Part shown: positions 1,319 to 3,392 of the stretch, piece by piece
Layout of the letters: each line of letters begins with the position of its first letter
How positions within the stretch are numbered: the stretch's first letter is position 1
Origin: Enterobacteria phage FrBlood
Sequence record: PP430139.1
Direction: 5' to 3' (one strand)
DNA length: 3,546 nt
Position numbers and translations under genes: made by a program
Notes under the pieces: model-generated
Told to the model about the DNA's origin: nothing
Databases searched by the model: none
What the model saw: only the letters and a program-made list of their open reading frames with translations

Positions 1319-1340
1319 AGTTCGAAGCATGGCTTCTAAC
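1319..1340 (+). promoter_or_regulatory. Coat-gene translation initiation hairpin with the start codon in the loop, plus SD GGAG at 1317-1320
   Basis: Seen in sequence: gaagc (1324-1328) pairs with gcttc (1332-1336), leaving ATG (1329-1331) in the loop; flanking g1319-t1320-t1321 can pair with a1338-a1339-c1340 around an internal mismatch. Equivalent to the well-studied MS2 coat initiator hairpin. Confidence 0.7.
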
Positions 1341-1721
1341 TTTACTCAGTTCGTTCTCGTCGACAATGGCGGAACTGGCGACGTGACTGTCGCACCAAGC
1401 AACTTCGCTAACGGGGTCGCTGAATGGATTAGCTCTAACTCCCGCTCGCAGGCTTACAAAGTAACCTGCAGCGTTCGTCAGAGCTCTGCGCAGAACCGCA
1501 AGTACACCATTAAGGTCGAGGTGCCGAAAGTGGCAACTCAGACCGTAGGTGGCGTACAGCTCCCTGTAGCCGCATGGCGTTCGTACTTAAATATGGAATT
1601 AACTATTCCTATTTTCGCAACGAACGACGATTGCGCGCTTATTGTTAAGGCGATGCAAGGTCTCCTGAAAGATGGAAACCCGATCCCCTCAGCAATCGCA
1701 GCAAACTCCGGAATCTACTAA
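1329..1721 (+). CDS. cp: Coat (capsid) protein, which is also the translational repressor of the replicase gene
   Basis: 130-codon ORF (MASNFTQFVLVDNGGTGDV...AIAANSGIY), 129 aa after Met removal, as in MS2 coat protein. Conserved RNA-binding and structural residues in mature numbering: T45, C46, T59, K61, W82, Y85, N87, C101. Stop TAA 1719-1721 is followed immediately by TAG 1722-1724. Confidence 0.98.
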   Translation: MASNFTQFVLVDNGGTGDVTVAPSNFANGVAEWISSNSRSQAYKVTCSVRQSSAQNRKYTIKVEVPKVATQTVGGVQLPVAAWRSYLNMELTIPIFATNDDCALIVKAMQGLLKDGNPIPSAIAANSGIY

Positions 1722-1899
1722 TAGATTCCGGCCATTCCAACATGAGGATTACCCATGTCGAAGACAACAAAGAAGTTCAACTCTTTATGTATTGATCTTC
1801 CTCGCGATCTTTCTCTCGAAATTTACCAATCAATTGCTTCTGTCGCTACTGGAAGCGGTAATCCGCACAGTAGAGACTTTACAGCAATTGCTTACCTAA
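1672..1899 (+). CDS. lys: Lysis protein L, a small membrane protein encoded in the +1 frame across the coat/replicase junction
   Basis: 75-aa ORF (METRSPQQSQQTPESTNRFRPFQHEDYPCRRQQRSSTLYVLIFLAIFLSKFTNQLLLSLLEAVIRTVETLQQLLT). Basic N-terminal half, hydrophobic C-terminal segment with the LS-dipeptide region (LLLSLL). Starts inside the coat gene and ends inside the replicase gene, exactly the MS2 arrangement; same length as MS2 L. Confidence 0.93.
   Translation: METRSPQQSQQTPESTNRFRPFQHEDYPCRRQQRSSTLYVLIFLAIFLSKFTNQLLLSLLEAVIRTVETLQQLLT
1740..1758 (+). promoter_or_regulatory. Coat-protein-binding translational operator hairpin (TR / MS2 hairpin) covering the replicase SD and start codon
   Basis: Seen in sequence: ACAUGAGGAUUACCCAUGU, i.e. 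stem ACAUG/CAUGU with a bulged purine and loop AUUA. This is the canonical wild-type MS2 operator (U at loop position -5). The replicase AUG (1755-1757) lies in the 3' arm and the SD GAGGA in the 5' arm. Confidence 0.95.
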
Positions 1900-3392
1900 G
1901 GGACGAGTTGCTTACTAAGCACCCGTCTCTAGGAAATGGTAATGACGAGGCGACCCGCCGGGCTTTAGCTATCGCTAAGCTCCGGGAGGCGAATGAACGG
2001 TGTGGCCAGATTAACAGAGAAGGTTTCTTACACGACAAATCCTTGTCGTGGGATCCGGATGTTTTACAAACCAGCATCCGTAGCCTTATTGGCAACCTTC
2101 TCTCTGGCTACCGTTCGTCGTTGTTTGGGCAATGCACGTTCTCCAACGGTGCCTCAATGGGGCACAAGTTGCAGGATGCAGCGCCTTACAAGAAGTTCGC
2201 TGAACAAGCAACCGTTACCCCCCGCGCTCTGAGAGCGGCACTACTGGTCCGAGACCAGTGCGTGCCGTGGATCAGACACGCGGTCCGCTATAACGAGTCA
2301 TATAAATTTAGGCTCGTTGTAGGGAACGGAGTGTTCACAGTTCCGAAGAATAATAAAATAGATCGGGCTGCCTGTAAGGAGCCCGATATGAATATGTACC
2401 TCCAGAAAGGAGTTGGCGCCTTTATAAGACGTCGCCTCAAGTCTGTCGGTATAGACCTGAATGATCAAACGATCAACCAGCGTCTGGCTCAGCAGGGTAG
2501 CGTAGATGGCTCATTAGCTACGATAGATTTATCGTCGGCTTCTGACTCCATCTCCGATCGCCTGGTGTGGAGTTTCCTCCCACCTGAGCTATATTCATAT
2601 CTCGATCGTATCCGCTCCCACTACGGGATCGTAGATGGTGAGACGATACGATGGGAACTATTTTCCACAATGGGGAATGGGTTTACTTTTGAACTAGAGT
2701 CCATGATATTTTGGGCGATAGTAAAAGCTACCCAGATCCATTTTGGTAACGCCGGAACCATAGGCATCTACGGGGACGATATTATATGTCCCAGTGAGAT
2801 TGCACCCCGTGTGCTAGAGGCACTTGCCTACTACGGTTTTAAACCGAATCTTCGTAAAACGTTCGTGTCAGGGCTCTTTCGTGAGAGCTGTGGCGCGCAC
2901 TTTTACCGTGGTGTCGATGTCAAACCGTTTTACATCAAGAAGCCAGTTGACAATCTCTTCTCCCTTATGCTGATCATGAATCGGCTTAGGGGGTGGGGAG
3001 TTGTCGGAGGTATGTCAGATCCGCGCCTTTATAAGGTTTGGGTACGACTGTCCTCCCTGGTTCCATCGATGTTCTTCGGTGGGACGGACCTTGCCGCCGA
3101 CTACTACGTAGTTAGCCCCCCAAACGCCGTCTCAGTTTATACTAAGACTGCATACGGGAAGCTACTCGCGGATGCCCGTACCTCGGGTTTCCGTCTTGCT
3201 CGTATCGCGAAAGAGCGAAAGCACTTTAGCGAAAAGCATGACAGTGGTCGCTACATCGCATGGTTCCATACTGGAGGTGAGATCACCGACAGTATGAAGT
3301 CCGCTGGCGTACGCGTAATGCGTACTTCGGAGTGGCTGACGCCGGTTCCCACATTCCCTCAGGAATGTGGGCCAGCGAGCTCTCCTCGGTAG
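1755..3392 (+). CDS. rep: RNA-dependent RNA polymerase (replicase beta subunit)
   Basis: 545-aa ORF (MSKTTKKFNSLCIDL...ECGPASSPR), stop TAG 3390-3392. Contains the RdRp motif C YGDD (GTIGIYGDDIICP; codons at nt 2769-2780). Same length as, and by recollection highly similar to, MS2 replicase. Confidence 0.98.
   Translation: MSKTTKKFNSLCIDLPRDLSLEIYQSIASVATGSGNPHSRDFTAIAYLRDELLTKHPSLGNGNDEATRRALAIAKLREANERCGQINREGFLHDKSLSWDPDVLQTSIRSLIGNLLSGYRSSLFGQCTFSNGASMGHKLQDAAPYKKFAEQATVTPRALRAALLVRDQCVPWIRHAVRYNESYKFRLVVGNGVFTVPKNNKIDRAACKEPDMNMYLQKGVGAFIRRRLKSVGIDLNDQTINQRLAQQGSVDGSLATIDLSSASDSISDRLVWSFLPPELYSYLDRIRSHYGIVDGETIRWELFSTMGNGFTFELESMIFWAIVKATQIHFGNAGTIGIYGDDIICPSEIAPRVLEALAYYGFKPNLRKTFVSGLFRESCGAHFYRGVDVKPFYIKKPVDNLFSLMLIMNRLRGWGVVGGMSDPRLYKVWVRLSSLVPSMFFGGTDLAADYYVVSPPNAVSVYTKTAYGKLLADARTSGFRLARIAKERKHFSEKHDSGRYIAWFHTGGEITDSMKSAGVRVMRTSEWLTPVPTFPQECGPASSPR

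Follow-up and report, generated by a model that had tools for sequence, protein, structure and literature searches.

The coat-replicase control region of Enterobacteria phage FrBlood (PP430139.1) in all likelihood contains the classic Min Jou long-range interaction of MS2, with six Watson-Crick pairs where MS2 has seven. We put the probability at roughly 85% that the window has the Min Jou element as described for MS2, that its seventh pair is non-conserved, and that the absence of the pair is a common, tolerated allele that weakens the helix at most slightly. The element, the species and the allele are already known from published genomes, and nothing here is new in kind.

The window (the whole stretch of DNA analysed, 3546 bases) is a near-full-length genome of Emesvirus zinderi, an MS2-type levivirus, with four genes and without the first 6 and the last 17 bases of the MS2 genome. 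Over its whole length it is 99.4% identical to FrHenna (PP430140), about 95% identical to DL16 and FrSaffron, and about 92% identical to MS2. The coat AUG lies at 1329 in the window and at 1335 in MS2, so that a window coordinate is the MS2 coordinate minus 6. The features of the window that bear on the interaction are these:

124-1305, maturation gene, from the open reading frame list
1329-1721, plus strand, coat gene of 130 codons, from the open reading frame list and the homologous annotation of MS2 and FrHenna
1414-1420, plus strand, GGGUCGC, directly 5' of the Min Jou arm and paired with 1950-1956 in the whole-genome MFE structure
1421-1427, plus strand, Min Jou 5' arm UGAAUGG, inside the coat gene, identical to MS2 1427-1433
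1672-1899, plus strand, lysis (L) gene of 75 codons, which runs from the end of the coat gene through the intergenic stretch into the start of the replicase gene
1708-1731, plus strand, coat-stop hairpin CCGGAAUCUA cuaa UAGAUUCCGG, from the MFE structure and the RNAalifold consensus
1732-1738, plus strand, Min Jou 3' arm (anti-Min Jou) CCAUUCC, between the coat and replicase genes; MS2 1738-1744 is CCAUUCA
1740-1758, plus strand, replicase operator (TR) hairpin ACAUGAGGAUUACCCAUGU, Rfam RF02359
1744-1748, Shine-Dalgarno sequence GAGGA, within the operator hairpin
1755-1757, replicase AUG, within the operator hairpin
1755-3392, plus strand, replicase beta-subunit gene, from the open reading frame list, its start hidden by predicted structure
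1950-1956, plus strand, GCGACCC, the downstream strand of the helix with 1414-1420 (whole-genome MFE structure)

The preliminary description had placed the two Min Jou arms at 1421-1427 and 1732-1738 and had read a terminal U-C mismatch between them, leaving six pairs and not seven. These are the right nucleotides, as the interaction has been mapped to MS2 1427-1433 and 1738-1744 (PMC11339067; PMC12143590), and alignment with the MS2 reference used for the arm comparison (RefSeq NC_001417.2, CCATTCA in the 3' arm) bears out both arms and the mismatch. The equivalent MS2 position is A, and not C, in V00642-type MS2, MS2_ancestral, ST4, GI_A, R17, M12 and JP501. In the window the pairs are G1422-C1737, A1423-U1736, A1424-U1735, U1425-A1734, G1426-C1733 and G1427-C1732, so that six of the seven MS2 pairs remain; U1421 faces C1738 as a mismatch, the A-to-C difference at 1738 having removed the counterpart of the operator-proximal seventh pair of MS2, U1427-A1744. 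Whichever downstream partner the adjoining 1414-1420 takes, the absent pair is the junction-side one, closest to the operator, and does not belong to a free end. The 5' arm begins 92 nt after the coat AUG in the window and MS2 alike, and the 3' arm lies directly 5' of the operator hairpin, which begins at 1740. U1421 occupies the wobble position of an Ala codon in the coat gene, GCU (GCA in phage fr), where a change is silent. The variant base 1738 lies 3' of the coat stops and 5' of the replicase AUG, which leaves L as the sole protein altered, and at -17 relative to the replicase AUG it falls outside the 19-nt operator, so that coat binding should be unaffected.

Taken by itself, the hexamer complementarity GAATGG/CCATTC is not significant: the window has 4 such sites against 1.4-1.7 expected, and 8-12 of 200 shuffled sequences match that count. 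The case for the helix consequently rests on exact positional homology with the mapped MS2 element, to which are added the constancy of the six pairs among 15 isolates and the folding prediction. The heptamer CCAUUCC of the C-allele 3' arm occurs a second time at 102-108, just 5' of the maturation-gene Shine-Dalgarno sequence, and GAAUGG occurs again at 2675-2680; both extra copies are probably coincidence. For MS2 itself, the stability of the interaction has been given as near -8 kcal/mol, with the replicase ribosome-binding site hidden until ribosomes cross the coat gene (PMC11339067). Patch probes support the interaction in transcripts, and it is unresolved in the virion cryo-EM (as stated in PMC12143590).

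Thermodynamic folding recovers the six-pair helix in the MFE structures of three sub-segments of the window, with probabilities of 0.90-0.98, and the whole-genome MFE structures contain six Min Jou pairs in the window and seven in MS2. The cofold of 1415-1430 with 1728-1760, put forward in the preliminary description as a check, returns at first an alternative GGUCG/CGGCC pairing, a misleading outcome because the 1728-1760 fragment cuts the coat-stop hairpin in half. Once the whole hairpin is included the alternative vanishes in favour of the Min Jou helix, and we rejected it. Directly 5' of the Min Jou arm, short-segment folds pair 1413-1420 with GCGAUCUU at 1804-1811 instead of with 1950-1956, and the two partners are mutually exclusive. 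The whole-genome fold, together with a compensatory C-G to U-A change in the 1414-1420/1950-1956 helix of fr, favours 1950-1956. A U-to-C change within the 1804-1811 stretch of the lab strain MS2_ancestral would convert a G·U pair to G-C.

In MS2, the dependence of replicase synthesis on ribosome passage through the 5' arm was established with nonsense mutants and base-pair substitutions (summarised in PMC11339067), and the established mechanism comprises the block by the helix, its melting by ribosomes and a later shut-off by coat dimers (PMC11339067; PMC9894550). The coupling mechanism in the window is carried over from MS2 by homology and would run as follows. GAAUGG at 1422-1427 would pair with CCAUUC at 1732-1737, just 5' of the operator hairpin, and the resulting Min Jou helix would meet the coat-stop and operator hairpins and the 1414-1420/1950-1956 helix in a junction, within which the replicase ribosome-binding site would be buried. 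Elongating ribosomes passing 1422-1427 (coat codons 31-33) would unwind the helix and make the replicase start accessible for a short time, and coat dimers bound to the operator hairpin would later switch replicase translation off.

How general is the seventh pair? Alignment and pair counts for the Min Jou region cover 15 distinct isolates, with phage fr (X15031) as the outgroup. None of the 15 departs from the six core pairs. At the seventh position there is U-A in six of them (MS2, GI_A, R17, M12, JP501 and DL1) and U·C in eight (the window, FrHenna, FrSaffron, J20, DL16, DL52, Hu-Sh-YMS from China and GER_L00928 from Germany); in fr it is A·C, which brings those without the seventh pair to 9/15, with origins in the USA, China and Germany in addition to the outgroup. 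Apart from the U to A in fr, the 5' arm does not vary among the 15 isolates. The core pairs never vary, and there is accordingly no covariation in the core helix across these isolates, a constancy that speaks neither for the pairing nor against it; the sole variable pair is the one that is broken in nine. C is the majority base at the variant column of the alignment, and an unguided RNAalifold consensus includes the pairs 23-28:333-338 and leaves out 22:339, the seventh pair. Silent U1421G, which would restore a pair, is absent from every C-allele isolate. Because the pair is broken in most isolates, goes without this silent repair and is missing from the consensus, the alignment indicates that it is under no noticeable constraint. 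The C allele is the majority state among distinct natural isolates, so that MS2 and its close kin are the ones with an extra, non-conserved pair. Judged from the alignment, the window genome is not defective, and its six-pair helix is an ordinary polymorphism and a common natural allele.

In a neighbour-joining tree with fr as the root, DL1, which has the A allele, is nested in the C-allele group, which implies that the site has switched at least three times or has moved by recombination; the outgroup has C, and the ancestral state is not fixable from this tree. A scan of public contigs for the operator yielded no further allele counts, adding only lab-type MS2 (L011, L012). Two other contigs with exact matches to the 19-nt MS2 operator (L013, 2690-2708; L014, 2378-2396) were set aside: they have unrelated flanks and open reading frames on both strands, and the matches are chance in a very large collection, in contigs of DNA organisms and not of leviviruses.

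Two hairpins flank the 3' arm. The coat-stop hairpin holds the coat UAAUAG stops and adjoins the outer end of the 3' arm, and its stem is a perfect 10 bp in the window whereas MS2 has an A·C mismatch. Its pair MS2 1718:1733 (alignment columns 313:328) covaries through A-U, C-G, G-C and U-A, which is good comparative support for the hairpin. DL16 and DL52, both of the C allele, have a G-to-U change at MS2 1737, the last base of the coat-stop hairpin, which breaks the closing pair; the same change would allow an outer extension of the Min Jou helix (A1434-U1737, U1435·G1736). All seven pairs of the operator hairpin are invariant in the 15 isolates. The RF02359 match at window 1723-1758 scores 60.6 bits (E 4.7e-13), above the gathering score of 40, and the Rfam consensus gives the variant column, 1738, in lower case.

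What might the missing pair cost the phage? The preliminary description had suggested that the mismatch could slightly loosen coat-replicase coupling, and the models make this plausible in direction and probably small in size. A stronger version of the idea, that the U·C mismatch measurably loosens coupling and gives more replicase without coat translation, for which the lineage compensates elsewhere through the perfect coat-stop hairpin stacked on the helix or through a C1738-G1760 pair, we consider unlikely. In its favour, the lost pair is the one closest to the ribosome-binding site and the modelled duplex is weaker in the window than in MS2, at -6.5 against -7.3 kcal/mol in isolation and -7.8 against -9.6 kcal/mol with flanking bases, a loss of 0.8-1.8 kcal/mol that is nevertheless segment-dependent and within the error of the nearest-neighbour model. 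Changing C1738 to A in silico gives the seventh pair a probability of 0.42-0.85 and an ensemble energy gain of 0.9-1.7 kcal/mol in three sub-segments, and the probability of the core helix is 0.80-0.95 among C-allele isolates against 0.90-0.99 among A-allele isolates. In a two-strand calculation that takes in the coat-stop hairpin, however, net binding is -6.0 kcal/mol in both the window and MS2, and the overall modelled cost of the missing pair comes to about 0-1.8 kcal/mol. Placing A1744C in the MS2 background lowers the helix probability from 0.76 to 0.15 in one segment (1300-2000), whereas the window's own background keeps it at 0.97; this leaves room for background dependence, though the drop is within what such models get wrong. 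Mismatches in the Min Jou helix are said, in the work of van Himbergen in 1993 and Licis in 1998, to uncouple replicase synthesis, and the revertants reportedly restored pairing or strengthened a neighbouring long-range helix. As for compensation, the perfect coat-stop hairpin is found in five of the eight C-allele isolates, and the DL16/DL52 change, by which the helix could grow at the opposite end, is a possible compensation for the missing pair, but the apparent pattern comes from a handful of isolates that are not phylogenetically independent, the perfect hairpin and the seventh pair occur together in R17 and JP501, and the silent U1421G is present in no isolate. Recapture of C1738 by G1760 under the operator hairpin, across an A·C mismatch, was rejected, with a probability of only about 0.1 in the window and an A at the partner position that makes it impossible in fr. 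In a more speculative extension, which we regard as doubtful, MS2 1744 (window 1738) would be a naturally toggling tuning site, with at least three A/C switches or recombination, at which C gives slightly leakier replicase initiation that is offset, lineage by lineage, by how strong the coat-stop hairpin is or by the outer-end extension of DL16 and DL52.

The variant base could also be held in place by the protein that it alters, with the RNA pairing incidental. C1738 is the first base of L codon 23 (1738-1740), and the K to Q replacement proposed in the preliminary description proved correct, the codon being AAA in MS2 and CAA in the window. The base is outside the coat and replicase frames, and the K/Q state at residue 23 tracks the A/C allele exactly, with Q in fr too. 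Yet selection on K23 versus Q23 as the cause of the polymorphism seems to us improbable: residue 23 belongs to the soluble N-terminal domain of L, whereas lytic activity resides in the last 35 residues of the protein (PMC10688784), and neighbouring residues vary freely among the isolates, as fits weak constraint better than selection. Elsewhere in the lysis gene, GER_L00928 has GUG and not AUG as the first codon (MS2 1678; V in a straight translation). We give practically no credence to a sequencing or assembly error at 1738 in PP430139.1, for which nothing speaks except the single-base difference from MS2 and which is refuted by the same base in eight independently sequenced isolates and in fr. 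The reading that we prefer remains that of a known helix with a non-conserved seventh pair: what is conserved in the classic Min Jou helix is a block of six pairs, and the seventh pair of MS2 is lineage-specific. The six-pair core is relevant to the modelling and engineering of translational coupling of the MS2 type, as in synthetic circuits that use the 1427-1433/1738-1744 pairing, and is useful for annotating new isolates; otherwise the distinction matters little beyond bookkeeping. If the A and C alleles do differ measurably in coupling, they would form a natural pair with which to gauge the helix stability that the switch needs.

Compared with the Min Jou interaction of MS2, that of the window has the same genome position, 5' arm, six core pairs, flanking operator and coat-stop hairpins, and predicted helix in the MFE structure. 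It differs in having U·C in place of the operator-proximal U-A pair, in a linker to the operator hairpin of two unpaired nucleotides (C1738 and A1739) and not one, and in an unpaired U1421 between the two long-range helices. The stem of the operator hairpin is identical to that of MS2 and matches RF02359 over its full length, with differences confined to the unstructured 5' flank, at the variant base and the coat-stop hairpin. FrHenna, DL16, DL52, J20, FrSaffron, Hu-Sh-YMS and GER_L00928 are like the window in the C allele, the six-pair helix and Q23, and DL16 and DL52 also have the G-to-U at MS2 1737 that the window is without. Phage fr shares the GAAUGG/CCAUUC core, the C in the 3' arm and the Q in the lysis frame; unlike the window it has A opposite this C, and its coat-stop hairpin and operator loop differ. 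In the single segment of fr that was tried, the thermodynamic model did not recover the Min Jou helix (probability 0.01). Further afield, a 6-bp helix, GCUUUC/GAAAGC, is predicted by a single-sequence fold of phage GA, of group II, between 1420-1425 and 1725-1730; it joins the equivalent coat position to the stretch just 5' of the GA operator and suggests that six pairs may be a typical size for a coat-replicase switch of this kind.
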